Source: a virus
Lineage: Duplodnaviria; Heunggongvirae; Uroviricota; Caudoviricetes
Length of the DNA stretch: 64,000 nt
IMG/VR virus record: IMGVR_UViG_3300028103_000015
Direction: 5' to 3' (one strand)
Part shown: piece by piece, positions 1,547-48,478 of the stretch
Position numbering within the stretch: position 1 is the first letter of the stretch
How the letters are laid out: each line of letters starts with the position of its first letter
Translations under genes and position numbers: made by a program
Notes under the pieces: generated by a model
Seen by the model: the letters and a program-made list of their open reading frames with translations, nothing else
What the model was told of the DNA's origin: nothing
Databases searched by the model: none

Positions 1547-1783
1547 ATGGCAACTTACGATCCTAGTAAACGTTACACCTGGACTCCTAATGATAAGTTT
1601 GAATTCACAGGAGCAGAATTTGGTCTCATTCTGAACGCATTTCGTGCTGTTCTGAACACAGAAGAAGCTGCAAAGATTCTTCTAGCTAATGAAGCTAACC
1701 AAGTGGTAGAGCGTGCTCTTGCAGCAGCTGTTGAAGCTGATGTTGTTAAAGAAGCAGAAGAGATTAAGCAAAGCGGTTTGTGA
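1547..1783 (+). CDS. hypothetical protein (78 aa, acidic, Ala-rich)
   Basis: The ORF 1508..1783 is trimmed to the internal Met at 1547 (MATYDPSKRY), which lies downstream of the -7-like motif. Confidence 0.5.
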   Translation: MATYDPSKRYTWTPNDKFEFTGAEFGLILNAFRAVLNTEEAAKILLANEANQVVERALAAAVEADVVKEAEEIKQSGL

Positions 1784-1861
1784 GACTCTGTGGCATCCAT
1801 ATAATAGAACTAGATAGGGACGGTTTATGTCCTAAATGTTTAGAAGAAAAAAACACTTAAA

Positions 1862-2287
1862 ATGGCGAAGATTAAAAAGTATCAGATTGGTGGTAAAGCA
1901 AAAGCTAAACCAGATTCAGTGGAGAGCGAGATGTTTCCTGGGAAGAAAATCCCAAGATCTCAATCCAACTATGCCACTGGTAGAATAGCTAAGATGGCTG
2001 AGGCTGGTAAACCTAAGGTGGTGGCTATTAAGAAAGCAGCTGTTCCAAAGAAGAAACTTGGAGGTAAGCTTGCTAAACAAGCTGCTACAGCAATTGCTAT
2101 GAAGAAGAAAGGCATAAAGCCTAAAATGGATAAGGCTAAAGGTGGTAAAGAGATGATTAAGCGTGCTGACGGAAGCTATTCACAACGTGGTTTGTGGGAT
2201 AATATTCGTGCCAACAAAGGAAGTGGAAAGAAGCCAACTTCAGCAATGCTCAAACAAGAACGTAAAATAAAAGCTAAAGGTAAATAA
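1862..2287 (+). CDS. lysine-rich basic protein 1 (H1/protamine-like low-complexity); first of a tandem paralogue array
   Basis: 141 aa, about 25% Lys. It starts MAKIKKYQIGGK. AK-rich low-complexity sequence with no Cys. Confidence 0.7.
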   Translation: MAKIKKYQIGGKAKAKPDSVESEMFPGKKIPRSQSNYATGRIAKMAEAGKPKVVAIKKAAVPKKKLGGKLAKQAATAIAMKKKGIKPKMDKAKGGKEMIKRADGSYSQRGLWDNIRANKGSGKKPTSAMLKQERKIKAKGK

Positions 2288-2288
2288 C

Positions 2289-2645
2289 ATGGCAAAAATG
2301 AAGAAAGCCCAAGCTGGCTTAAAAGCTTCTACAAAGCGTGTAGGTCCTGTTGATCCTTCAGGAGCATGGACAAAGGTGCAGGAAATGAACCTTCCTCCAC
2401 GTAATGTAAAGACCAAGGTGAGTCTTACAAAGGACAAAGAACAAGGAGCTACATCTATGGCCAAGGGTGGTAAGTGGATTCAGAAGGCTATTAAGAAGCC
2501 TGGAGCTCTACGTAAGTCACTTGGTGCTAAACCTGGTAAACCCATCCCTGCTGGTAAGCTTGCAAAAGCTGCTAAGGCTAAGGGTAAACTTGGTCAGCGT
2601 GCTAGATTAGCAATGACTCTCAAGAAAATGAGCAAAAAGAAATAA
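2289..2645 (+). CDS. lysine-rich basic protein 2
   Basis: 118 aa. Starts MAKMKKAQAGLK. There is a 1-nt gap to the previous gene. Confidence 0.7.
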   Translation: MAKMKKAQAGLKASTKRVGPVDPSGAWTKVQEMNLPPRNVKTKVSLTKDKEQGATSMAKGGKWIQKAIKKPGALRKSLGAKPGKPIPAGKLAKAAKAKGKLGQRARLAMTLKKMSKKK

Positions 2646-3127
2646 TGCCAACTATCAAGAAACTCTTGAAGGTTGCTCCTAGAATGCGCAACACACTTCC
2701 TCAGAATGTAACAAAGGGGAATGGTGTAAAGAACCCACAGAAGGCATCTGCTTACGTGGGAAAGGGTGTGTTGAAGAATGGTGATACAATTGCAGCTGTC
2801 AAGGGGGCTATTACACCCGTACCCAACGGACCATTGATTAAGAAGAAGGGTCCATATGCTGGATCTACACTTAAGAAGGGTGGAAAGGTGACTGTGATGG
2901 CTGGTGGTGAGAAGCATGTTGTATATAAGAAGACCAGTCCAACAGGTGTTGGTAAGGGAAAGAAAGGAAACATCATGGTGAATCATCCTACAAAGGATAA
3001 GGGTAAATGGGACACCATAGATCTCACAAAAATAGGAAGAGCCAAGACTGTCAAACAGGGTGTAGCTGCTACCAAGAAATGGCACAGAGACAATCCTGAT
3101 TATAAATACAAAGGCAAAAAGAAATAA
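2645..3127 (+). CDS. lysine-rich basic protein 3
   Basis: 160 aa. Starts MPTIKKLLK. Its start overlaps the previous stop (TAATG). Gly/Lys-rich. Confidence 0.65.
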   Translation: MPTIKKLLKVAPRMRNTLPQNVTKGNGVKNPQKASAYVGKGVLKNGDTIAAVKGAITPVPNGPLIKKKGPYAGSTLKKGGKVTVMAGGEKHVVYKKTSPTGVGKGKKGNIMVNHPTKDKGKWDTIDLTKIGRAKTVKQGVAATKKWHRDNPDYKYKGKKK

Positions 3128-3129
3128 CC

Positions 3130-3588
3130 ATGGCTAGGATTAAAAAAGCACAGAAAGGAGATACTCTCAGAGCATCTGTTGCCACATTCAAAAGCAGAAT
3201 TGGAGACACCGCTGCTGTAAAGAAGAAAGCAGATTCTCTTGGACTCTCCACTGACAAGGTGAGGAGTGCTCTTAAGGCTAGAATAGCTGCTAAGAAGCAA
3301 CGTTCTGGTGGTAAGACACCAGCTTGGCAAAGAAAGGAAGGAAAGAATCCTTCAGGTGGTTTGAATGCAAAAGGTGTAGCGAGCTACAGAGCTGCTAATC
3401 CTGGATCTAAGCTTAAGACTGCTGTTACAACCAAACCATCTAAACTAAAACCTGGAAGCAAAGCTGCTAACAGACGTAAGAGTTTCTGTGCTAGAATGTC
3501 TGGTATGAAGAAAAGACTGACATCTGCCAAAACTGCTAATGATCCAAACAGCAGAATTAATAAGTCTCTTCGTAAATGGAATTGCTAA
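3130..3588 (+). CDS. lysine-rich basic protein 4
   Basis: 152 aa. Starts MARIKKAQKGD. Arg/Lys-rich, with a C-terminal ...RKSFCARMSGMKK..DPNSRINKSLRKWNC segment. Confidence 0.7.
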   Translation: MARIKKAQKGDTLRASVATFKSRIGDTAAVKKKADSLGLSTDKVRSALKARIAAKKQRSGGKTPAWQRKEGKNPSGGLNAKGVASYRAANPGSKLKTAVTTKPSKLKPGSKAANRRKSFCARMSGMKKRLTSAKTANDPNSRINKSLRKWNC

Positions 3589-3609
3589 CATTTAAAAACT
3601 TAAATAACA

Positions 3610-4107
3610 ATGGCAAAAATTAAGAAATATCAAGACGGTGGTAAGTCCTCCCTTGGTATGAAATCTGTTAAAGCTGGATATGATAAGAATCCTGGTGTAA
3701 CAAGGGCAGACATTATTGTAGCTGCTAAGAAGGAAGCTAAATCAGGAGCAAAGGTTAAGAAGGCTCAAGCTGGTAGCAAAGTGGCTCTTCGTACAGCTCA
3801 ATTGAGAAGACTAGGCAGACTTTCTGCTAAGAACCCAGCTAAGGCAGAACAAGTGGGATCTAAGATGGTAGAGAAAGCTACACGCGTATCACGTGGTAAA
3901 GACTACTTGAAGAAGAACATCAGCAGTCTTATGCCTGAATCACGCAAGGGTAGCAAGGTGAAGAAAGCACGTAACGGAGCTACACTATCTCCTTCTAAAA
4001 AGAGTGTTTCTTCTGAGCTCGGTAGCTATAAGCGTGTAGCTGGAAAGAACCTTTCTAAGATGAAGATGGGTGGTTCTATGAAAAAATGCAGAGGAGGTTG
4101 CTATTAA
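3610..4107 (+). CDS. lysine-rich basic protein 5
   Basis: 165 aa. Starts MAKIKKYQDGGK; the first 8 aa are identical to protein 1. An internal KKAQAGSK repeat echoes protein 2. Confidence 0.7.
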   Translation: MAKIKKYQDGGKSSLGMKSVKAGYDKNPGVTRADIIVAAKKEAKSGAKVKKAQAGSKVALRTAQLRRLGRLSAKNPAKAEQVGSKMVEKATRVSRGKDYLKKNISSLMPESRKGSKVKKARNGATLSPSKKSVSSELGSYKRVAGKNLSKMKMGGSMKKCRGGCY

Positions 4108-4108
4108 T

Positions 4109-4249
4109 ATGAAAGCAGGAAAACCAAAGAAGGCCCCAAAGGTGCCACCACCTAAGCCTATCAATGCCAATTATATGAAAGAGGCTGATACCAAACTTAG
4201 GAGGTCCAGTAAAATGTGGCCCATGAAATCAAAACGTCTATCTAAATAG
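4109..4249 (+). CDS. small basic protein 6 (46 aa; not in the ORF track because it is under 60 aa)
   Basis: ATG at 4109, 2 nt after the upstream stop, and TAG at 4247. Translation: MKAGKPKKAPKVPPPKPINANYMKEADTKLRRSSKMWPMKSKRLSK. Confidence 0.4.
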   Translation: MKAGKPKKAPKVPPPKPINANYMKEADTKLRRSSKMWPMKSKRLSK

Positions 4250-4280
4250 TTATTGTTTCATAGTGTTGTTTGTTTAATAA

Positions 4281-4312
4281 AAGCCTCTTTTATCAAGAGG
4301 CTTTTTTATTTT
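4281..4312 (+). terminator. rho-independent terminator closing the basic-protein operon
   Basis: Perfect 9-bp stem AAGCCTCTT/AAGAGGCTT with loop TTATC, followed by TTTTATTTT. Confidence 0.7.
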
Positions 4313-12038: not shown

Positions 12039-13842
12039 ATTCTACAGTGTCATCTAGTTCTGTCACCTTAGTGAGATCTACATTTTTAAGTGAGGACAGT
12101 CTAGTGTCATACTCTGTCCTCTCTATGTCCTCAAAGGGGGCTTGTTTGTAACTTCCTCCCCAGAAGGGTAGTACAGAGAGTCCATTGTAATATTCTTTGT
12201 TAGTCCACATCCATTCACCTACAACAGGCCATTCTTCTGGCTTGATAGAAATTGTAGCGCTCACATTGTGTGTATTCTCTCCTGTGTTATGTCCTGCCTT
12301 GATCCATTGTGTAGCAAACTTCTTAACACGCTCTAGTGTGTCTAGAGGGCTTTCAGTTCTAAATATAGATCCTTCTGGGGCTTTAACAGGAATTCTTACA
12401 CACACTGTGTCATGAGGACGCAGTACATCATCTTCTACAAGTTCTGGATGATTTACCATCAAATAGGATGCAACATCCTCATTCTTGCCAAATCTCATTG
12501 TTCTCAAATAATATGGAGCATGCCATGCATGAATGCCACTAGCTGTACCTAACACAAGACTTGTTGTTCCTGAAGGCTTAATACATGTTACACGTGCTGC
12601 CTCATTGATTCCAATCTTCTCACTAATAACAGCGTTGGTTAGTTTGGCTACATGTGCTGCTGCTTCCAAGCTATATTTCAAGATTTCTCCTGATCCAATA
12701 CCTGTCATTCCTATACCTAACAATGCATCCTTCTGAGTAGTTTTAGACCAAATAGGTCTGAGATAGTGGAAGTCTGTAAATCCAGCCTGCAGTGTTCCCA
12801 AGAAGGCTGCTGCTGTAACACGGTCATTCAGGTCTTCCTGATTAACCACATCACTTACGTTCACCTCACATAGGTTACAGAACTGGTATGGTCTAAGAGC
12901 AATCTCACAACATGGATTGGTTCCCCAGTCTAAATTGTTGGTCCAATAGATTCCAGGCTCACCAGATCCAGAAGCTTCAATCCTCTTCCAGAGGGCATCA
13001 AATTCTTCTTTGCCTACAGAACCTCTCAACAGTACAGCTGAGTTATTAGCTCTACCACGCTGTTCATTGGTTTCCCACCAGTTACCATATTTACATGTAA
13101 TCATCTCCTCATCATCATGACTGAATAGAGATATCATGGCTGATCTACGAATACCACCAGCTAGAACACTGTTAGCAATGTGACAGAGGATATCATGACA
13201 TTCTAGAGGACTCAATTGTTCTCCTTCCTGTTTCCTGTCTAAGACTGCCTGCACATGCGCCAGACATATCTTAAGAGGCTCAGGACCAGGAGCTTTACCA
13301 CCAGCTGTCACTAGTCTAGCACCTTTCTTACGAATGGCTCTAAAGTCAAACTTAGGCATAAATCCTTCCTCTAGATAGGCTTTCATGAGCACCTTCACAG
13401 CGTCTGCCCAGCCCATAATGCTATCCTCGATGAGATAGTTACGGAGTTTTCCAGGCTTTGTAATAGCTGGAAGCTTTGCAACGTGTTGTTTCTGAACACT
13501 ATAGCCCACACCTGTACCACCTAGAAGCAAAAACATAGTTTCGCTGAAGCTATGGATGCTATCTATAGGTAGGTAGCAACAGTTGTAAATACGAGAGTTG
13601 TTCACTTCAGCTGCTGGTCCAGCAAACTGTAGAGCTCTCATAGAGGGAAGCACCTTCTTTTTCCTTATAAATGTGGCTGTTTCTACAATTTGACTTTCTA
13701 GTTTGGGATATTTCTTGATCATCATTTGCTCATATCTATCCACAATCTCATCCCAGGTTTCTCTTCTTTTGAGCTCTGGAATATACTTTGCATACTTACT
13801 AAATACCGTGAGCTTGCTCAACGCGTCCAATCCTAAATCCAT
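11992..13842 (-). CDS. nrdJ: ribonucleotide reductase, probably class II (B12-dependent, NrdJ-like)
   Basis: N-terminal YAKYIPELKRRETWDEIVDRY (NrdJ signature), active-site NPCCEI, and a C-terminal Cys pair (CAGGAC). No NrdB partner is present in the window. Confidence 0.7.
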   Translation of the reverse strand: MDLGLDALSKLTVFSKYAKYIPELKRRETWDEIVDRYEQMMIKKYPKLESQIVETATFIRKKKVLPSMRALQFAGPAAEVNNSRIYNCCYLPIDSIHSFSETMFLLLGGTGVGYSVQKQHVAKLPAITKPGKLRNYLIEDSIMGWADAVKVLMKAYLEEGFMPKFDFRAIRKKGARLVTAGGKAPGPEPLKICLAHVQAVLDRKQEGEQLSPLECHDILCHIANSVLAGGIRRSAMISLFSHDDEEMITCKYGNWWETNEQRGRANNSAVLLRGSVGKEEFDALWKRIEASGSGEPGIYWTNNLDWGTNPCCEIALRPYQFCNLCEVNVSDVVNQEDLNDRVTAAAFLGTLQAGFTDFHYLRPIWSKTTQKDALLGIGMTGIGSGEILKYSLEAAAHVAKLTNAVISEKIGINEAARVTCIKPSGTTSLVLGTASGIHAWHAPYYLRTMRFGKNEDVASYLMVNHPELVEDDVLRPHDTVCVRIPVKAPEGSIFRTESPLDTLERVKKFATQWIKAGHNTGENTHNVSATISIKPEEWPVVGEWMWTNKEYYNGLSVLPFWGGSYKQAPFEDIERTEYDTRLSSLKNVDLTKVTELDDTVEFGQIAACAGGACEIA

Positions 13843-36865: not shown

Positions 36866-36917
36866 CTGTTTTTGTTTTTAAAGTTAATAATAAATAATAA
36901 ACCTATATCCGATAAAA

Positions 36918-36938
36918 GGTTTTGGGATGGATGATGGG
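36918..36938 (-). promoter_or_regulatory. conserved upstream motif copy C (plus-strand GGTTTTGGGATGGATGATGGG)
   Basis: One of three related motifs found just upstream of consecutive leftward genes. Confidence 0.4.
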
Positions 36939-36941
36939 AAA

Positions 36942-36962
36942 AAAGGGGAGCAATTCCCCTTT
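36942..36962 (-). terminator. rho-independent terminator after gene 36967..37281
   Basis: Stem AAAGGGGA/TCCCCTTT with a T-run on the minus strand. Confidence 0.5.
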
Positions 36963-36966
36963 ATTG

Positions 36967-37281
36967 CTAACTTACTAACTCAAGCCATTCTGCGTCTGGT
37001 TCATATTGCTCACAACTCTTCATTGCTGGTATTGTCAACCAATCCAGCATGTCTCTTTTCCTTTGGAAGGCAGCACCAATCACCTTGAATGACCCACTAA
37101 TATCTTCTCCCCACAGTGGGCTGAAGTCTTTTATATCTTTCATTTGGTCAGAGATTACAGCATAGAATGGTGTTTTCAATGAACCACTAATTAATTCAGG
37201 CAGGAAGAACATTTCTCCAAACATGTTCTGGCAAATGTTCATTGTCTTGTCAATGTGAAGAATAACTGTAACTTTAAACAT
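36967..37281 (-). CDS. hypothetical protein
   Basis: 104-aa ORF flanked by a motif and a terminator. Confidence 0.5.
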   Translation of the reverse strand: MFKVTVILHIDKTMNICQNMFGEMFFLPELISGSLKTPFYAVISDQMKDIKDFSPLWGEDISGSFKVIGAAFQRKRDMLDWLTIPAMKSCEQYEPDAEWLELVS

Positions 37282-37307
37282 AATGTATTGATTTATAGTT
37301 GTTTAAT

Positions 37308-37322
37308 GGTTTTGGAATGAAT
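37308..37322 (-). promoter_or_regulatory. conserved upstream motif copy B (GGTTTTGGAATGAAT)
   Basis: 26 nt upstream of the start at 37281. Confidence 0.4.
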
Positions 37323-37325
37323 AAA

Positions 37326-37348
37326 AAAAGCACGCATTGAGCGTGCTT
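37326..37348 (-). terminator. rho-independent terminator after gene 37347..37547
   Basis: Stem AAGCACGC/GCGTGCTT with T7 on the minus strand. Confidence 0.6.
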
Positions 37349-37547
37349 ATTCTCCGAATGCAACTAATTCATCCCACTCTTCAGGTGTCATTCCTGTTAG
37401 AATGAACTCCCTTTCATGTGGCTTGAGGTGAGGAAATGCATCCTGCACCTTAGCACCACTTAAGTAGGAATCAATCTGTTCTTCTGTAATGTCTAGCTCC
37501 ATTGTGTGTTGTTTGCCTGTCAATTGGCTTGTTGTTGTTACTAGCAT
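37347..37547 (-). CDS. hypothetical protein (66 aa, acidic)
   Basis: ORF flanked by a motif and a terminator. Confidence 0.5.
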   Translation of the reverse strand: MLVTTTSQLTGKQHTMELDITEEQIDSYLSGAKVQDAFPHLKPHEREFILTGMTPEEWDELVAFGE

Positions 37548-37573
37548 AACGTTTAATTTTAAGGCTGTTAAAT

Positions 37574-37593
37574 GGTTTTGGGATGGAATGAGG
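37574..37593 (-). promoter_or_regulatory. conserved upstream motif copy A (GGTTTTGGGATGGAATGAGG)
   Basis: 26 nt upstream of the start at 37547. Confidence 0.4.
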
Positions 37594-37812
37594 ACAAGGG
37601 AAGAACTGGTCTTCCCATGATGTGTCTGCCGTTCTTAGTGGCTTAATTCTCCATAATTAATCTATTCCTTTAGAATGCAGCAATGAACTTGTGGCAGACC
37701 GTTGAACTGTTGCTGTCCTTTAGAAAAGATTTCCAGAACGTTTTACCTGGCAAAATCGCCCATTCTGTAGCAATTGATGGGGGGTAGCCCCAACATTGCA
37801 AGACAGGCTGGG

Positions 37813-39555: not shown

Positions 39556-39837
39556 ATGGGAAGACCCAATGATTATTACAGAGTGCTCGCACTCTTACAA
39601 CAATTACATGTAAGCTACCCTAATTACAATATGGGTAGACACCTAGCCACTGCGCTAGATGAATATGGAGATGTGTGGGGACTCACTGACAGAGAGCTGT
39701 TGTTTGCTCTTGATAAATACAAGGCTGAGCTAGACATGGACGTGCCCCATACAGACGAGAGTGAAATTGATCAGATTATAAAGGAGGGGATGAATCTGGA
39801 GAACATATTAAAAGAAGAAGATGGCGAAGACTATTAA
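39556..39837 (+). CDS. hypothetical protein
   Basis: 93-aa ORF. Confidence 0.45.
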   Translation: MGRPNDYYRVLALLQQLHVSYPNYNMGRHLATALDEYGDVWGLTDRELLFALDKYKAELDMDVPHTDESEIDQIIKEGMNLENILKEEDGEDY

Positions 39838-40156
39838 AAAAACTACATACGTAAATGCTGAGCTTGATTGGGCAGAACAACAGCTTTCCTCCTGGAAGGC
39901 GTATGTTGATGCCAATCCCCTGCATGAACTTAAAGATAGGATTGAGTGGAAACCTACAGCCAAAGGAGGCATGCTTCCCATGGTGATTGCATCAATCGAA
40001 GCACAAGGTAAGTTTATACAGGAAACAATGAAGAACTACTTGGCTCTTCTAGAGGTGGTGGAGAAACTAAGAGAGAAGGAAGAAGCTAAAGTGGAAATCA
40101 GAGGCAATGGAGAACTAAGCTCCATGGCTGAGGACTTCCTTAAGAGCAGACGATAA
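39821..40156 (+). CDS. putative terminase small subunit
   Basis: 111-aa gene immediately upstream of the large terminase, overlapping it with ATGA. Assigned by position only. Confidence 0.3.
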   Translation: MAKTIKKTTYVNAELDWAEQQLSSWKAYVDANPLHELKDRIEWKPTAKGGMLPMVIASIEAQGKFIQETMKNYLALLEVVEKLREKEEAKVEIRGNGELSSMAEDFLKSRR

Positions 40157-42183: not shown

Positions 42184-44765
42184 TGGCTATCATTAGATAT
42201 ACCAAGGATGCTACGATTAGATATGCCTATCTAAACATATTCCCTGATCAGTTTAAAACTGACAAAGAGAAGCAGGATGAGAGTTGGATAAAGAACACGA
42301 TGGACTACTTTGCAAACAAGTCTTATGCTGAGTATGTAAAGAACCGTGATACATTTGTCAAAAACTACGACTTGATAAAAGGTATTCTTCGTATGGAAGA
42401 CTTCTATCAAGAACCACAGGTGAAATCATTTACAGACATCATGACAGCTGACTTACAGCTTCCTGCATATGTGAAGATGTATTCCATCATGACTACACCA
42501 GTGAATGAGCTGGTTGGTGAAATCACAAAGCGTCCTGATACATTCAGGGTGAAAGCGTTTGATGATGACAGCAAAGCTGAAGAGCTGCAATTTAAAACAG
42601 ACATTCTACAACAATACGTAATTAGTCAAGCCAAGCAAAAGATTGTTCAGCAAGCCGCAATGACTGGTCAAGAGATTGATCCAGAGGAACTAGAACAAAT
42701 GACAATGGAGCAAGTGAAAGATGTGCTTGACAGTTATACATCTGTAGCTGAGAAATGGGCCAACCATGTATTGACATGTCAAAAGGCAGAGTTCAATCTA
42801 AAGGAGAAATCAGAAGATGCATTTCGTGACATGCTTATATCAGGAAGAGAATTCTATCACATATATGAAGATAATTCAAAGCTTGGATTTAACATTGAGG
42901 TGGCTAACCCAAAGAATACATGGTTTCTCACAACGCCTGATAGAAAGTGGATTAGCGACCCTACAGGGAGAGCTCAAGGTGCTTATGCTGCTGGTACTGT
43001 TCAAGTTATGGAGCTTTCAGAGATCATTGAGAGCATTCCTGATCTCACTAAAGAGGAGATAGATCACCTGCGTTCATCTCTTCAAGACTACGGACTTATT
43101 AATGTACGTGAATCCAATCTAGGTAATCCTGATGCGATTCCTGGTATTGATTCTGTAATGTACGACACATATGATCCTCTTGTTCTTCAGACACGTATGA
43201 TTATTGAATCAGAAATGAAGGAGAACAACGATGGGCTGAAAGACTTCTTAGGACTCACATCAAATGTTTCCTCTTTTGGATACAAGTATGTTGTTGTCCG
43301 TTCTTATTGGATTAGTAAGAAGAAGATCGGTAAGGTCATTTACCTGGATGAATTGGGAAATGAGCAGTCTGTCCTGGTAGATGAGAATTACAAATCTAAC
43401 ACCATTCCTACACAGCAGTCTCTAGAATGGGGATGGATAAATCAGTGGTATCAAGGAACAAAGATTGGTCCAGACATCTACCACATCAAACCGTTTAATC
43501 TTCTCAACTATTGTCCCATCATTGGTACAACATTTGAGGTGAAGAACACAGAGGCTAAGAGTCTTGTAGACTTAATGAAGCCTTTCCAGGTGCTCTACAA
43601 TGTTTGTATGAACCAGCTTTACAAGCTCCTTGAGAAGGAAGTGGGTAAGGTGTACTTGACATCCATCAGGCACATTCCCGTTCCCAAGGATGGTGATGCA
43701 CAAGATGCACTAGACATCTGGGAAATGGAAGCTCGTAATCGTGGTGTTGTATTTATTGACGACAGCCCTGAGAATCTAAAGAGTCCAAGCTCATTCAATC
43801 AGTTTAGAGACATTGATCTTACACGTACACAGGAAATACAATCTCGTTACACACTGGCTCAACAGCTCAAGAACGAATGTTGGGAACTTGTGGGAATGAG
43901 CAGACAACGTATGGGATCTATTACATCCAGTGAATCTGCTACAGGTGTAAACACAGCTGTACAACAATCTTATTCTCAAACAGAACCATTATTTGTAGCT
44001 CACGAATATATTATGGGTCAGCTCTATCAAGCAATCATTGATGCTGCCCTATATGTAGAATCCAAGAAGCCTCAGTCTACACTAAGTTATATCACCAGTG
44101 AAGGTGAATCAGCATTTGTTTCTGTAAATGGATCTGATCTCAAGTTTAGAGATTTGAAAGTATTCTTGACAAATCGTCCTGAAGATAAGCAAATGTTTGA
44201 CGAGCTTAGAGGTCTTTCTCAGGCTATCATCCAGAATGGTGGTACATTGTATGATGTAATTGAACTTTACAGTACCAAGTCTATGAGAGCAATGAAGAAA
44301 GTGTTTAAAGACTTGAGAAACAGACAAATGGATCTACAAAATAGTGAGCTCCAGTTGAAACAGCAACAACTTGATCAACAAGCTCAGATTGCTCAGTCTC
44401 AATTGCAACAGGCTCAGTTCCAGAAGGAACAAGATATGGCTAATGAGAACTATCAGAATGAACTTGATAGAATCAATAAAAAAGAAATAGCTCTGATAAA
44501 TGCTGAAGCTAAGGTGGGTCCTCTTACAGATATAGACAAGAGTGGAGCTCCTGATGTTCTGGAAATTCAGAAGATTGCAGCTGAACAGTCACGTACAGGC
44601 AGAGAATATGAAATGAAGATGGCAGACATTCAGTCTAAGAACTCTCAAAGTTTACAGAAGCTGGAAATCGAAAGAGAAAAGCTGAAGGTGGCTAGAGAGA
44701 ACCAAAAGAACGATCTCGAAATAGCAAAGGTGAACGCTAGAAATCGAGCTAAAAAACCTAAATAA
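42183..44765 (+). CDS. putative portal protein (860 aa, C-terminal Q-rich coiled coil)
   Basis: Position directly after the large terminase with an ATGA overlap. Assigned by size and position only. Confidence 0.45.
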   Translation: MAIIRYTKDATIRYAYLNIFPDQFKTDKEKQDESWIKNTMDYFANKSYAEYVKNRDTFVKNYDLIKGILRMEDFYQEPQVKSFTDIMTADLQLPAYVKMYSIMTTPVNELVGEITKRPDTFRVKAFDDDSKAEELQFKTDILQQYVISQAKQKIVQQAAMTGQEIDPEELEQMTMEQVKDVLDSYTSVAEKWANHVLTCQKAEFNLKEKSEDAFRDMLISGREFYHIYEDNSKLGFNIEVANPKNTWFLTTPDRKWISDPTGRAQGAYAAGTVQVMELSEIIESIPDLTKEEIDHLRSSLQDYGLINVRESNLGNPDAIPGIDSVMYDTYDPLVLQTRMIIESEMKENNDGLKDFLGLTSNVSSFGYKYVVVRSYWISKKKIGKVIYLDELGNEQSVLVDENYKSNTIPTQQSLEWGWINQWYQGTKIGPDIYHIKPFNLLNYCPIIGTTFEVKNTEAKSLVDLMKPFQVLYNVCMNQLYKLLEKEVGKVYLTSIRHIPVPKDGDAQDALDIWEMEARNRGVVFIDDSPENLKSPSSFNQFRDIDLTRTQEIQSRYTLAQQLKNECWELVGMSRQRMGSITSSESATGVNTAVQQSYSQTEPLFVAHEYIMGQLYQAIIDAALYVESKKPQSTLSYITSEGESAFVSVNGSDLKFRDLKVFLTNRPEDKQMFDELRGLSQAIIQNGGTLYDVIELYSTKSMRAMKKVFKDLRNRQMDLQNSELQLKQQQLDQQAQIAQSQLQQAQFQKEQDMANENYQNELDRINKKEIALINAEAKVGPLTDIDKSGAPDVLEIQKIAAEQSRTGREYEMKMADIQSKNSQSLQKLEIEREKLKVARENQKNDLEIAKVNARNRAKKPK

Positions 44766-45295
44766 TGTTTGATAAACTCATAGACCTAATAACTCATTGG
44801 TGGAATTTTTTGATGCCAGCAGTGATCATACCAGACTATGAGGAAGCTGTTTTGCTAAGGGCTGGTAAGTTCAAGAAGGTATTGAAACCAGGGTTCCACG
44901 TGAAACTCCCTGTTATAGATGAAGTGATACAGCAGCATGCTGTTGTAACAACGTTGAGCCTTTCTGCCCAGTCGCTATATACAAAGGATAAACAAAACAT
45001 AGTTGTTAAAGGTGTTGTCAAATATAAGATATCTGATGTCAAAGTGTTCCTCCTGGAAGTATTTGATGCTCAGGATGCCTTGGCTGATATGACCCAGTCT
45101 ATCATCAAGAACATCGTCATATCCCTACCTCTAGAACAGTGTATAGATCCAGAAATAGACAATACACTTACTAAGAAGGTGAGGGTTGAAGCTAAGAAAT
45201 GGGGAGTTGACATTCAACAGGTTACGCTTACAGATATAGCCCCTATCAGAAGCTTTAGACTCATAAATGACACGATTACAAACAAACTTGATTAG
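44765..45295 (+). CDS. SPFH/Band-7 (stomatin/prohibitin-like) domain protein
   Basis: N-terminal hydrophobic anchor. DYEEAVLLRAGKF (compare EYERAVIFRLGRI) and WGVDIQQVTLTDI (compare WGIKVERVEIKDV). Confidence 0.75.
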   Translation: MFDKLIDLITHWWNFLMPAVIIPDYEEAVLLRAGKFKKVLKPGFHVKLPVIDEVIQQHAVVTTLSLSAQSLYTKDKQNIVVKGVVKYKISDVKVFLLEVFDAQDALADMTQSIIKNIVISLPLEQCIDPEIDNTLTKKVRVEAKKWGVDIQQVTLTDIAPIRSFRLINDTITNKLD

Positions 45296-45418
45296 AGTGA
45301 ATTATATTAATGCTATATTATACGGGAAAAACATTCACACAAATGCATAACTCTTTGCTATTCAATATACTCTGATTACTTTTACAAACGTATAAACCAA
45401 ACTTAAAATAAACTACAT

Positions 45419-46708
45419 ATGGCTGAGAACCTTGATACCCCGTCATTTGGCAACTTTAGTATTGAAAATACTATGGAAATGGGACCTGGAGGTGCAGAGC
45501 TTCTTAATGACTTGCTCTCTCCTGAAACTTCTACAAGCAATCCTGATCAGATTCAAGAGATTGTAAAGAACGTAGAAGATCCTGCTCCTGCTCCAAAACC
45601 TGAGGTGCCTAAAGGAAAAGAAATCGTTCCTCAACAAGATGGTAAAGAACCTTCTGCTCAGGACTTGATTTCAAACTTCCTTGGTGACAACACTGATGAA
45701 GAAGAGGAAGAAACACAACCTGTTGATCCTCAACCAGTTAAGAAGAAAGCTGGCGAAGCAAAACCTGCTGAAGCTGCTCCTGCTGCTGAAGAGGAATCAC
45801 AAGATGAGGAGACAGAACAAGTGAGTCAATTCACCGCACTTTCTCGTGACCTATTCAAACTTGGTGTCTTTTCAAAGGATGAAGATGAAGAAGATGCTGA
45901 CATCTCTACACCTGAAGCTTTCCTTGAGCGCTTCCAAAATGAGAAGAAGAAAGGAGCTGTTGAAATGGTGCAGAGCTTCATTGGTCAGTTTGGGGAAGAT
46001 TATCAACAAGCGTTTGATGCTATATTCGTAAAAGGCGTTAATCCAAAGGACTACTTTGGTACATATAATAACGTGACCAGCTTTGCTGAAATGGATTTGT
46101 CACAAGAGAATAATCAAGTGGCAGTGATAAAACAAGCACTAGCTGATCAGGGTTTTGAAACTGAAGACATTAACACAGAGGTTGAAAGACTCAAAAACTA
46201 CGGTGATTTGGAAAGCGTTGCTACAAAGCACCATAAAGTGTTGGTTAAAAAGGAAGCTGCAAAACTCCAACAAATGGAGCAAAGAGCTGAACAAGAACTC
46301 CAACAAAAGCAAGCAATCAAAAACCAATACATCCAGAATGTTCAGCAAGTTCTTAACGACAAGCTGAAATCTAAGGAGTTTGATGGTATACCCATCAATC
46401 CCAAGTTGGCAAACGAACTACAAGACTTCCTGCTGGTAGATAAGTATAAGACAGCAAACGGTGAGACCCTCACTGATTTCGACAAGACCATCTTGGAATT
46501 GAAGAGACCTGAGAACCATGCAACAAAGGTGAAAGTTGCTCTCCTGCTTAAAATCTTAGAAAAAGACCCTACATTATCTACCATCCAAAGAACAGGCGTT
46601 TCAAAGAAATCAAACGAGCTGTTTGGGGAAGTGGCTAGACAGGTTACAAAAACTAAGTCAGCAGTGGGTGGTGCACAGCCTTCTAAACAAAATTCATGGT
46701 TCTTATAA
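45419..46708 (+). CDS. putative scaffolding protein (acidic N-terminus, coiled-coil middle)
   Basis: EEEEE/PA-rich low-complexity stretch, then coiled coil. Lies between the portal region and the capsid candidate. Confidence 0.4.
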   Translation: MAENLDTPSFGNFSIENTMEMGPGGAELLNDLLSPETSTSNPDQIQEIVKNVEDPAPAPKPEVPKGKEIVPQQDGKEPSAQDLISNFLGDNTDEEEEETQPVDPQPVKKKAGEAKPAEAAPAAEEESQDEETEQVSQFTALSRDLFKLGVFSKDEDEEDADISTPEAFLERFQNEKKKGAVEMVQSFIGQFGEDYQQAFDAIFVKGVNPKDYFGTYNNVTSFAEMDLSQENNQVAVIKQALADQGFETEDINTEVERLKNYGDLESVATKHHKVLVKKEAAKLQQMEQRAEQELQQKQAIKNQYIQNVQQVLNDKLKSKEFDGIPINPKLANELQDFLLVDKYKTANGETLTDFDKTILELKRPENHATKVKVALLLKILEKDPTLSTIQRTGVSKKSNELFGEVARQVTKTKSAVGGAQPSKQNSWFL

Positions 46709-48386: not shown

Positions 48387-48478
48387 AAACTACAGAGTGG
48401 TTGGACTGGGGTGTCTCCCAATCGCTATCCCTTCGATGGGAATCACTCTGCGAATAAAACCAAATAAATAAACTACAT

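Follow-up and report, generated by a model that had tools for sequence, protein, structure and literature searches.

The locus between positions 1862 and 4312 of the window, a stretch of 64,000 nucleotides, is best explained as an accessory cassette conserved in a lineage of freshwater crAss-like podophages. Each of its six genes (K1 to K6) represents a conserved, unannotated family of its own; those of the four that were searched range in size from about 1200 relatives to more than 8000. Short, nearly invariant modules (one to four per protein) are linked by fast-evolving Lys/Ala/Gly/Pro linkers, and this combinatorial grammar of short modules and K-x-G-G junctions is common to aquatic phages of unrelated hosts. 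Judged from sequence and by analogy, the products may be late-made, DNA-associated accessory proteins, some of which would enter the capsid and be delivered together with the genome; this is the reading we prefer, though tentatively. What we infer in it is that the proteins bind DNA, are made late and are packaged and ejected, as well as any role of the N-terminal tag.

The six consecutive genes are encoded on the + strand and span 1862-4249: K1 (1862-2287, 141 aa), K2 (2289-2645, 118 aa), K3 (2645-3127, 160 aa), K4 (3130-3588, 152 aa), K5 (3610-4107, 165 aa) and K6 (4109-4249, 46 aa), the last being the cassette's final gene in every case. Their preliminary description as co-oriented genes for Lys-rich basic proteins of 46-165 aa was confirmed. 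Lys accounts for 17.8-26.1% of the residues, Arg for 2.5-9.2% and Ala for up to 14.5%; the pI is 10.5-11.7, and the net charge +13 to +35 each. The tight packing of the genes was also found, with the spacing corrected from 1-22 nt and 2 nt to -1, 1, 2, 21 and 1 nt. No other genuine ORF of the 64-kb window combines a Lys content of 17% or more with a pI above 10, and the probability that six given genes out of 88 would lie side by side by chance is about 1.5e-7. Purifying selection acts on each of the six (dN/dS 0.04-0.46; K6 0.04 versus relative L001). The intrinsic terminator that had been proposed to close the array was recovered at 4279-4312 (+ strand), with an 11-bp stem and a 5-nt loop (4279-4305) followed by a T-run (z = -3.35); the same hairpin was found 3' of K6' in L001 at 12996-13024. 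Among K1 to K6, an SD-like GAGGAGG was present upstream of K6 only. The 78-nt gap 5' of K1 contains a sigma-70-like promoter match (TTGTGA-16-TATAAT, 1778-1805, + strand, 10/12 to a consensus that may not suit a Bacteroidota host), and the promoter-like region is kept in relative L083 and missing in L001, L067 and L039. A search for a promoter motif common to K1 and late genes found none; all it returned was a repeated motif near 37 kb, which is unrelated, and a 5' leader common to two head genes.

The phage was recognised as crAss-like by matches to CrAss_Ring_2 (2.3e-18) and CrAss_Ring_1 (6.4e-12), and PHROGs for TerL, portal and MCP were found. The cassette had been placed at the distal end of a structural operon, but in this phage it sits in a glycosylation/lysis operon. 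The + strand run begins only about 8.5 kb upstream of the cassette, at a divergent junction, and contains genes for a cytidylyltransferase, a PfkB kinase, a GH19 lysozyme-type protein and DUF5856; glycosyltransferases (GT2) continue downstream of the terminator. Tail-fibre-like genes do adjoin the cassette on its upstream side in a more distant relative (L099/L100). Codon usage of the cassette is closest to that of head and tail genes, and GCT, GGT and CGT are shifted toward MCP values, a shift too mild to be a decisive indicator of expression. Late expression is thus suggested by the co-orientation with lysis and tail-fibre genes and by the mild codon shift toward late genes.

The same surroundings would suit envelope-active polycations that act on the cell envelope at lysis or entry, for instance by outer-membrane disruption or by interaction with anionic polysaccharides. 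Glyco_hydro_19 lies upstream and GT2 genes downstream in the same + strand run, pelagiphage DUF6321 genes adjoin endolysin-type genes, Peptidase_M15 and amidase, and the K proteins carry a high cationic charge. We regard such a function as very improbable: the GH19 gene is about 5 kb upstream with many genes between, the cassette ends in a terminator of its own and is preceded in some relatives by a promoter-like site, inspection of the sequences by eye revealed no signal peptide, transmembrane or amphipathic-helix architecture, and the similarity of K2 to the virion protein VP2 described below points elsewhere.

Homologous arrays were looked for in related phages and found. The syntenic block kept in relatives runs in the order DUF5856, p95, acidic p78, K1 to K6 and terminator, and the order of K1 to K6 is itself fairly conserved. 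The DUF5856 protein (PF19174; 803-1216, + strand, 137 aa; PHROG 858, 9e-14) was upstream of the cassette in all relatives examined. It was considered as a clear homologue of the DNA-compacting protein Dps and rejected, as the similarity to ferritin/Dps-like PDB entries was weak (E 0.15-0.5). The conserved 95-aa protein p95 (1216-1503, + strand), for which a family search gave no match, is always located between DUF5856 and the acidic protein. The latter, p78 (1547-1783, + strand, 78 aa, pI 4.6), is conserved immediately before the basic array and may serve as chaperone or partner of the basic proteins.

An N-terminus common to several of the proteins was verified for K1 (MAKIKKYQIGGK), K2 (MAKMKKAQAGLK), K4 (MARIKKAQKGDT) and K5 (MAKIKKYQDGGK), in which the consensus of this tag is M-A-K/R-[IM]-K-K-[AY]-Q-x-G. 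The tag is degenerate in K3 (MPTIKKLL), missing in K6, and the sole part that K1, K2, K4 and K5 have in common. The genes had been described as six paralogues, or a five- to six-fold paralogue array; they proved to be six distinct orthologue families with a common tag. Composition-controlled shuffles were exceeded by the pair K1-K5 (z = 4.5, owed to the first 13 residues) and weakly by K2-K4 and K2-K5, and were not exceeded by the remaining 12 pairs. 'MAK' was discarded as part of the tag: 17 of the 87 genes begin with MA and four other genes with MAK, which indicates in part a general start preference, so that IKK-x-Q-x-G is taken as the specific portion. The tag was not found elsewhere in the 64-kb window; in related contigs it is borne by many unrelated bodies, and its back-translated pattern matched only 56 IMG/VR stretches, mostly on contigs of 60-117 kb. 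It resembles the K-x-G-G-(K/S) junction that directly precedes most module types. Because internal copies exist in K5 (nt 3751, AKVKKAQAGSK; nt 3958, SKVKKARNGAT; + strand) and in fusions, the tag is not strictly an N-terminal signal.

Junction and tag might be protease sites of a pro-protein or polyprotein system, in which precursors are cut into basic peptides of 20-60 residues, along the lines of the maturation of adenovirus core proteins or the processing of polyvalent proteins. K-x-G-G-(K/S) stands directly before most module types, K5 resembles three or four concatenated units that each open with a copy of the tag, and the modules recur in separate genes, in fusions or, in other phages, as stand-alone proteins of 60-80 aa. 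However, no protease was recognised in or near the cassette, the GG may be a mere flexible hinge, and we know of no protease consensus that the K-x-G-G junction fits, which makes processing of this kind quite improbable. For phage polyvalent proteins, processing into functional units is thought to occur (PMC5512222).

The proteins had been called low in complexity, a term that applies to the linkers only, as the bodies hold nearly invariant motifs. In K1, the tag (aa 1-12) is followed by motif A (DSVESEMFPGKKIP, aa 18-31), a variable K/P/A linker that includes KQAATAIAMKK, and the nearly invariant module B (aa 94-141, nt 2141-2284, + strand; GGKEMIKRADGSYSQRGLWDNIRANKGSGKKPT..MLKQERKIK). Its AF2 model (pTM 0.20) is without a compact fold, and none of its 2165 relatives is annotated. 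K2 carries module C (KRVGPVDPSGAWTKVQE, aa 16-32, + strand) after the tag and a VP2-like C-module (aa 62-118, nt 2472-2642, + strand; KWIQKAIKKPGALR...GQRARLAMTLKKM) with 1222 cluster representatives. K3 has a disordered N-half with conserved motifs and a small domain of a four-strand sheet and a helix (aa 80-155, nt 2882-3109, + strand), in which E89, H91, H114, D118, D123 and H147 are invariant; about 1400 relatives were found, and comparison of the domain with solved folds gave no match. In K4, tag and variable linker precede a DUF6321 domain (PF19846; aa 71-150, nt 3340-3579, + strand), matched above threshold at 72.2 bits (gathering cutoff 28.5, E 5.4e-20). DUF6321 has at least 8000 relatives and occurs in 528 cultured phages, and no mention of it was found in the literature searched. 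K5 contains module I (GMKSVKAGYDKNPGVTRADII) after the tag, module J (LGSYKRVAGKN) and the C-terminal MKKCRGGCY; K6 is a Pro/Lys-rich mini-protein (KKAPKVPPPKP...NYMKEADTKLR). Paired Cys were observed in K5 and DUF6321, and an EF-hand/dockerin-like Ca loop occupies orthologous positions in relatives; both are probably more usual outside the cytoplasm.

Among relatives, 219 distinct proteins fell into more than 50 architectures with shuffled modules, and the same modules are also present in acidic mosaic proteins. Cultured phages yielded no homologues of K1, K3 and K5 and one weak match of K2, to a pelagiphage; K4 matches pelagiphages and cyanophages at the nucleotide level. No K protein has a homologue in cultured crassviruses, and cellular homologues were confined to 10 MAG contigs, with none in isolate genomes. 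Fusions of the VP2-like module and DUF6321 were inspected for functional clues, and the partners were other unknown modules (DUF5661 and a 'VYPSAYA' module). DUF6321 and the K2 module hardly vary between phages whose hosts are SAR11, cyanobacteria, Methylophilales and putative Bacteroidota and whose morphotypes are very different.

Such near-invariance across very different hosts and morphotypes would favour a universal target over the capsid of one lineage. The K proteins could be intracellular, non-virion proteins for nucleic-acid binding or host takeover that coat phage DNA, nucleoid, RNA or ribosomes, like phi29 p6 or basic proteins of ribosomal type, with modules that dock onto universal cellular targets. 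Disordered polycations that carry invariant short motifs are reminiscent of proteins whose folding takes place on nucleic acid, the operon is non-structural in this phage, and the stand-alone DUF6321 gene of pelagiphages lies among small non-structural genes. Furthermore, the DUF6321 protein of cyanophage S-SZBM1 (ORF 192) is not among the 30 proteins of the virion proteome, which counts as evidence against packaging of the K proteins, although tryptic MS is biased against Lys-rich proteins. Against an intracellular function, no match to ribosomal, HU, H-NS or other cellular nucleic-acid-binding families was obtained, the sole informative remote similarity is to the virion protein VP2, the Ca-loop module and the paired Cys in family members suit the cytoplasm poorly, and the common tag would have no obvious role. 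We consider this alternative rather unlikely, but more probable than any other that we weighed.

The similarity to VP2 was observed with several methods. BLASTP of the K2 C-module against SSV1 VP2 gave 8e-07 with 43% identity over 42 aa, and hhalign a probability of 85.5-87.1% (E about 5e-06) over 17-35 columns. VP2 scored above 1000 of its own shuffles against the K2-module HMM. The PF25632 model (Fusello_VP2_Capsid, 74 residues) matched K2 at 18.1-18.2 bits (E 0.0035-0.0037) over 15-17 residues, short of the gathering cutoff of 27 bits, and 13 of the 25 stand-alone K2-module relatives likewise matched below threshold. By sequence comparison, the K2 C-module appears to be distantly related to fusellovirus VP2, a DNA-binding protein that has been purified from virions; VP2 is dispensable, and its role in packaging is only presumed (PMC3367457). 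Together with the tag, which parallels that of T4 internal proteins, and the storage of cargo in crassviruses, the resemblance of the K2 C-module to a virion protein indirectly suggests a possible virion-borne, DNA-associated role.

Homology to H1, Hc1, HU or protamine, as proposed earlier, was contradicted. HMM comparison returned no model match at E up to 1, or up to 10 for isolated modules; K1 to K6 had no match to Hc1 or HU/IHF in Pfam and NCBIfam, nor K1, K3 and K4 to PDB sequences. Structure prediction, which covered K1 and K3, gave a K1 model that contains no winged-helix fold (H1 domain PF00538) and a K3 domain without a known fold. K1 to K6 do resemble the Lys/Ala/Pro-rich disordered tails of H1, a likeness of composition only that is not diagnostic. 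Protamines are very small and typically more than half Arg, whereas the K proteins have 46-165 aa and 2.5-9.2% Arg. Neutralisation or condensation of the genome was not supported either. One K1 to K6 set carries +175 charges in 84 kDa; if a cargo zone of crAss001 size (5.1 MDa) is assumed, at most 61 sets would fit and less than 5% of the phosphates of a 111-kb genome would be neutralised, which rules out bulk genome neutralisation. That true H1, chlamydial Hc1 or protamine homologues are the main condensing agent of the packaged genome is therefore scarcely credible: composition alone (Lys/Ala/Gly/Pro-rich, pI 10.5-11.7) speaks for it, and the modules are nearly invariant, unlike the fast-evolving H1 tails and protamines.

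According to the preferred reading, the K proteins would be made late in infection and associate with DNA, the linkers lending non-specific electrostatic affinity and the conserved modules specific contacts to DNA, to the virion or to partners in the host. Some K proteins, at least, would be co-loaded into the head with the genome, in analogy to T4 internal proteins, which have only a capsid-targeting tag in common, and to fusellovirus VP2, and then delivered along with it. Several observations stand against this reading. The cargo listed in the crAss001 virion proteome consists of large alpha-helical proteins only (PMC10172136). The head-module ORFs, several of them unannotated, include no recognised prohead protease, and a search for a tag-like motif in the head proteins found none. 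The presence of modules in acidic mosaic proteins, the internal copies of the tag, the conserved gene order and the low neutralisation in the cargo zone count in the same direction, as does the limited likeness to VP2, which stays under the Pfam gathering score and is confident over 17-35 residues only. A more far-reaching proposal, unlikely in our view, is a 'tagged peptide-module' system in which the K-K-x-Q-x-G-G tag/junction acts as a capsid-targeting or processing signal that loads small DNA-bound proteins, one of them VP2-like. The genome would then enter as nucleoprotein, the modules would be effectors or shields against host nucleases, and their toolkit would be exchanged among cyanophages, pelagiphages and crAss-like phages. 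Such a system of tailed phages would be previously undescribed.

If the proteins travel with the DNA, abundant uncultured freshwater crAss-like phages deliver their genome as nucleoprotein by a tag loading analogous to T4, and a protein of bacterial viruses is linked to the long-orphan VP2 of archaeal fuselloviruses. The analysis also exposes several large families without database annotation (K1 about 2200, K3 about 1400, the K2 module about 1200 cluster representatives, DUF6321 more than 8000), whose modules are concrete, small and readily synthesised targets for biochemistry.

Several known systems can be compared. H1, Hc1, protamines and the adenovirus core proteins VII, V and mu are polycationic and have a proposed tie to packaged DNA, like the K proteins, but are unrelated to them in sequence and fold; the K proteins are Lys-rich rather than Arg-rich and have conserved modules instead of simple repeats. 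In a phage head that is packaged by a motor, no more than a few percent of the charge could be neutralised. SSV1 VP2 (74 aa, very basic) opens with KW[IV]QKAIK[KR]PG as does the K2 C-module, continues with 'I.a..L.KA.K' and has a similar ending (LAk.Lk.M.rK); stand-alone K2-module relatives are often VP2-like in layout, with 65-100 aa and a module start at residue 3-5. K2 differs by its N-terminal tag and second module, K1, K3, K4, K5 and K6 have no similarity to VP2, and the virus of VP2 is an archaeal spindle virus without a packaging motor. Polyvalent proteins (Iyer et al. 2017) show combinatorial fusion and fission of small conserved domains, as do the K relatives, and are predicted to be co-delivered with DNA; they are large, with mostly enzymatic domains and a zincin-like peptidase, none of which occurs in the K proteins. 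Unlike K4, the DUF6321 protein of pelagiphages is a stand-alone protein of 83 aa without tag, and in T4-like cyanophages the domain forms the C-terminal end of a 591-aa mosaic protein.

The internal proteins of T4 are a diverse set with only a capsid-targeting sequence in common, their lysines contact DNA phosphates, and they leave the capsid with the DNA by ejection (PMC3012670). The genes for IPI, IPII and IPIII are clustered like those of the K cassette, and in both cases the products are small, mostly basic and otherwise unrelated proteins with an N-terminal tag of about 10 residues, found here on K1, K2, K4, K5 and other bodies. The T4 system involves a prohead protease and a scaffold-core partner, neither of which was recognised in this phage; the tag of the K cassette is also internal, and its gene order is largely conserved, in contrast to the hyperplastic T4 IP loci. 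As the tag has no sequence similarity to the T4 CTS, the parallel is one of analogy only. In crassviruses, protein cargo of about 5.5 MDa is stored in capsid and tail of the virion (PMC10172136). The cargo of crAss001 comprises alpha-helical proteins of 60-277 kDa encoded by structural-module genes, whereas the K proteins are Lys-rich, disordered, of 5-18 kDa and encoded elsewhere. The crAss001 cargo proteins, gp45 and gp46 together with the RNAP-associated gp47, gp49 and gp50, belong to the same type of virus, for which storage of protein with DNA is documented.

Six consecutive genes for lysine-rich basic proteins were located on the plus strand: K1 (1862-2287, 141 aa), K2 (2289-2645, 118 aa), K3 (2645-3127, 160 aa), K4 (3130-3588, 152 aa), K5 (3610-4107, 165 aa) and K6 (4109-4249, 46 aa), with intergenic gaps in this order of 1, -1, 2, 21 and 1 nt. 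The proteins contain 17.8-26.1% lysine and 2.5-9.2% arginine, with pI values of 10.5-11.7 and net charges of +13 to +35. Among the genuine ORFs of the 64-kb window, they alone combine at least 17% lysine with a pI above 10, and the contiguity of six given genes among 88 has a chance probability of about 1.5e-7. The dN/dS values against three relatives are low (0.04-0.46) and similar to those of the flanking enzyme genes; K1-K6 are therefore real and constrained. The array described preliminarily is real and non-random, and the intrinsic terminator reported to close it was confirmed (11-bp hairpin followed by a T-run, 4279-4312, plus strand, z = -3.35); the same hairpin recurs 3' of the last array gene in a relative. 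A sigma-70-like site (TTGTGA-16-TATAAT, 1778-1805, plus strand) directly 5' of K1 is kept in one relative and missing from others. An antisense ORF of 163 aa rich in Leu, Phe and Ser (2594-3085, minus strand), which overlaps K2 and K3, is accounted for most simply by the lysine codons of the coding strand.

Pairwise similarity of K1-K6 was assessed by composition-corrected BLASTP and by Smith-Waterman scores compared to 500 shuffles. K1-K5 was the sole pair clearly above shuffles (z = 4.5), with residues 1-13 as the source of the signal; for K2-K4 and K2-K5 the scores lay weakly above shuffles, and the remaining 12 pairs were not distinguishable from them. The proteins fall into separate families, and the proposed sixfold paralogy was not upheld. 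The K1 family is large (2165 relatives); it lacks annotation, as do the K2 family (1222 cluster representatives at 50% identity) and the K3 family (1373 relatives, the best 120 of which are 73-92% identical). All of the at least 8000 relatives of K4 carry DUF6321 (PF19846). Homologous arrays, the existence of which in related phages had been left as a check, were found as a conserved syntenic block of DUF5856, a 95-aa protein, an acidic protein of about 79 aa (pI 4.5-4.9) and the six K genes in unchanged order, K6 invariably last. In farther relatives, cassette members were gained, lost, fused or reordered. In one related phage (L001, 11843-12289) an HNH endonuclease gene separates the orthologue of K4 from that of K5 and marks the cassette as a mobile-element insertion site.

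The phage encodes TerL (675 aa), portal (860 aa) and major capsid (MCP, 517 aa) proteins, a virion protein of 1920 aa, the tail ring proteins CrAss_Ring_1 and CrAss_Ring_2, and a Band_7/SPFH-domain protein directly 3' of the portal gene (44765-45295). The head genes, the ring proteins and the SPFH gene beside the portal identify it as a crAss-like podophage. No close cultured relative was found, the best MCP match being 26% identical. Assemblies from lakes have yielded the phage repeatedly. The exact K1 protein occurs on 42 contigs, the longest of 111 kb, and K1-family matches lie on metagenome-assembled contigs binned as Sediminibacterium and Bacteroidia (L158, L160 and L159, JBBAJS010000010.1, 111,986 bp), one of them as large as this phage genome. 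These bins, together with Shine-Dalgarno sequences being mostly missing, tentatively hint at a freshwater Bacteroidota host; the contigs may be mis-binned phage DNA.

Placement at the end of a structural operon, as previously stated, was not confirmed: the plus-strand run that includes the cassette opens at a divergent junction no more than about 8.5 kb upstream. Besides small ORFs, it carries a GH19 lysozyme-type gene and genes for a cytidylyltransferase and a PfkB kinase; glycosyltransferases lie 3' of the terminator. In a farther relative, large tail-fibre-like genes are directly upstream of the cassette on the same strand. In codon usage the cassette comes nearest to the genes of head and tail, its GCT, GGT and CGT values being displaced in the direction of those of the MCP; the effect is modest. 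In two paralogous small proteins (367-582 and 594-800), long poly-Thr tails follow a common conserved N-domain (LKAYVRFDG.GR..AGSLIL.R.KPKVG.WVEI.A.ECCN); the N-domain bears different C-terminal domains in L001. As the pair lies in an island of at least seven glycosyltransferases, a cytidylyltransferase and a PfkB kinase, its products are candidate O-glycosylated (mucin-like) phage proteins. Elsewhere, the motif CATCCCAAAACC(A/T)TT is repeated 5' of three successive minus-strand genes near the divergent junction (about 36866-37800); these repeats might serve as early promoters, possibly recognised by a virion RNA polymerase of the sort known from other crAss-like phages. The leader AAATAAACTACAT occurs identically at 45400-45418 and 48460-48478, each copy abutting an ATG, 5' of genes at 45419 (scaffold-like, 5' of MCP) and 48479 (3' of MCP).

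An N-terminal tag (M-A-K/R-[IM]-K-K-[AY]-Q-x-G) is carried by K1 (MAKIKKYQIGGK), K2 (MAKMKKAQAGLK), K4 (MARIKKAQKGDT) and K5 (MAKIKKYQDGGK); it is degenerate in K3 (MPTIKKLL) and missing from K6. Strict matches were confined to the array, four N-terminal and one internal to K5, with no occurrence elsewhere in the 64-kb window; K5 has two further, looser internal copies. Across related viral DNA totalling about 1.5 Mb, many differing bodies carry the tag, and its back-translated pattern matched only 56 stretches in the whole IMG/VR, mostly on contigs of 60-117 kb. Since 'MA(K)' is a common start (MA in 17 of 87 genes of this phage), what is specific to the tag is IKK-x-Q-x-G. The 111-aa gene directly 5' of TerL (39821-40156), possibly the small terminase, begins with MAKTIKK and loosely resembles the tag.

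The K1 family alignment consists of four parts. The tag is followed by a conserved motif (DSVESEMFPGKKIP.S.SNY), by a K/P/A linker of hypervariable sequence and with large indels, and by a nearly invariant C-module of 45 residues (GGKxMxKRADGSYSQRGLWDNIRA..GSGKKPT..MLKQE.KIK), which by itself recurs, 85-93% identical, on IMG/VR contigs numbering in the hundreds. AlphaFold modelled no compact fold for K1 (pTM 0.20). A census with a dozen module regexes over the fetched loci yielded 219 distinct proteins in more than 50 architectures. A K-x-G-G-(K/S) junction directly precedes most module types (e.g. KAKGGKEMIKRADG, RSGGKTPAWQRKEG, MAKGGKWIQK and KSGGSFPDLNKDG). The N-terminal tag is itself such a junction; the basic unit is therefore a basic junction plus a short conserved module, which may form a gene of its own or be fused to others. 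That the GG junctions serve precursor processing is considered unlikely. The module SFPDLNKDGKITKADILKGRGV, found in cassette members of relatives (L039, 11303-11785; L007, 8668-8997; other loci) and absent from K1-K6, bore a weak similarity to the Ca-binding loops of EF-hand and dockerin domains (E 0.016-0.019). No earlier description seems to exist of this architecture, which combines a common tag and GG junctions with invariant modules in shuffled arrangements. The cassette is a set of six distinct tagged modular polycationic proteins conserved in an uncultured crAss-like lineage.

The suggested H1/protamine-like character did not hold in the HMM comparison proposed with it: neither K1-K6 nor their isolated modules matched H1, Hc1, HU/IHF or protamine models, and literal homology to H1 or protamine is highly improbable. 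No match to NCBIfam or PDB sequences was obtained for the proteins or isolated modules (PDB: K1, K3 and K4). K4 contains a clear DUF6321 domain (72 bits), which occurs in 528 cultured aquatic phages, cyanophages and pelagiphages among them. Its annotation is hypothetical throughout, and no mention of it was found in the literature searched. In pelagiphages it is a stand-alone 83-aa protein lacking the tag; in S-RIM8 it forms the C-terminal end of a 591-aa mosaic protein encoded next to the small terminase gene. The coding DNA (3313-3588) is 67-82% identical to pelagiphage and T4-like cyanophage genes and was the only part of the first 8 kb with a nucleotide match to cultured phages, which suggests recent horizontal exchange or extreme constraint on the module.

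Of the comparisons with known families, that of the K2 C-module (KWIQKAIKKPGALR...GQRARLAMTLKKM) alone gave an informative lead. The module matched the Pfam model of the SSV1 fusellovirus protein VP2 (Fusello_VP2_Capsid, PF25632) below threshold (18 versus 27 bits, E 0.0035). BLASTP against SSV1 VP2 gave 8e-07 with 43% identity over 42 aa starting at VP2 residue 2, and hhalign of two module profiles gave probabilities of 85.5% and 87.1% (E about 5e-06) over 17 and 35 columns. The module HMM ranked VP2 above 1000 shuffles of VP2, and 13 of 25 stand-alone relatives matched PF25632 individually. Many stand-alone relatives have 65-100 aa with the module starting at residue 3-5, the layout of VP2. 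A remote relationship short of family membership is credible from these alignments. VP2 was purified from virions, binds DNA and is a putative DNA-packaging protein, dispensable for the virus (PMC3367457). The cassette includes one member that carries DUF6321 and one credible remote relative of a DNA-binding virion protein.

One K1-K6 set amounts to +175 charges and 84 kDa. For a cargo zone of 5.1 MDa and a 111-kb genome (222,000 phosphates), at most 61 sets could be held, covering less than 5% of the phosphates. Bulk protamine-like neutralisation is therefore not feasible, and the genome condensation suggested earlier is not supported. Crassvirus virions do hold about 5.5 MDa of protein cargo, the known cargo proteins being large and alpha-helical (PMC10172136), whereas K proteins have only 46-165 aa. 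This storage and the T4 internal proteins (IPs) as an analogy tentatively favour the reading of K1-K6 as accessory proteins that would be made late, associate with DNA and, for at least part of the set, enter the capsid along with it. Against this reading count the internal tag copies of K5, the presence of cassette modules in acidic mosaic proteins as well, and the failure to find a protease or scaffold partner. So does the absence of the DUF6321 protein of S-SZBM1 (ORF 192) from the virion proteome of that phage, tryptic MS being biased against Lys-rich proteins. Binding to intracellular nucleic acid or a host target, to which near-invariant modules across phages of unrelated hosts point, is rather unlikely; action of these polycations on the envelope is rated as very unlikely.

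For co-packaged DNA-associated proteins, the nearest functional analogue of the whole cassette is the T4 IP system, likewise diverse small proteins with a tag alone in common. Gene order is conserved in the cassette, in contrast to the hyperplastic T4 IP loci, which also counts against the favoured reading. What the T4 IPs share is a capsid-targeting sequence; they enter the prohead core, contact DNA phosphates through their lysines and leave the capsid together with the DNA on ejection (PMC3012670).
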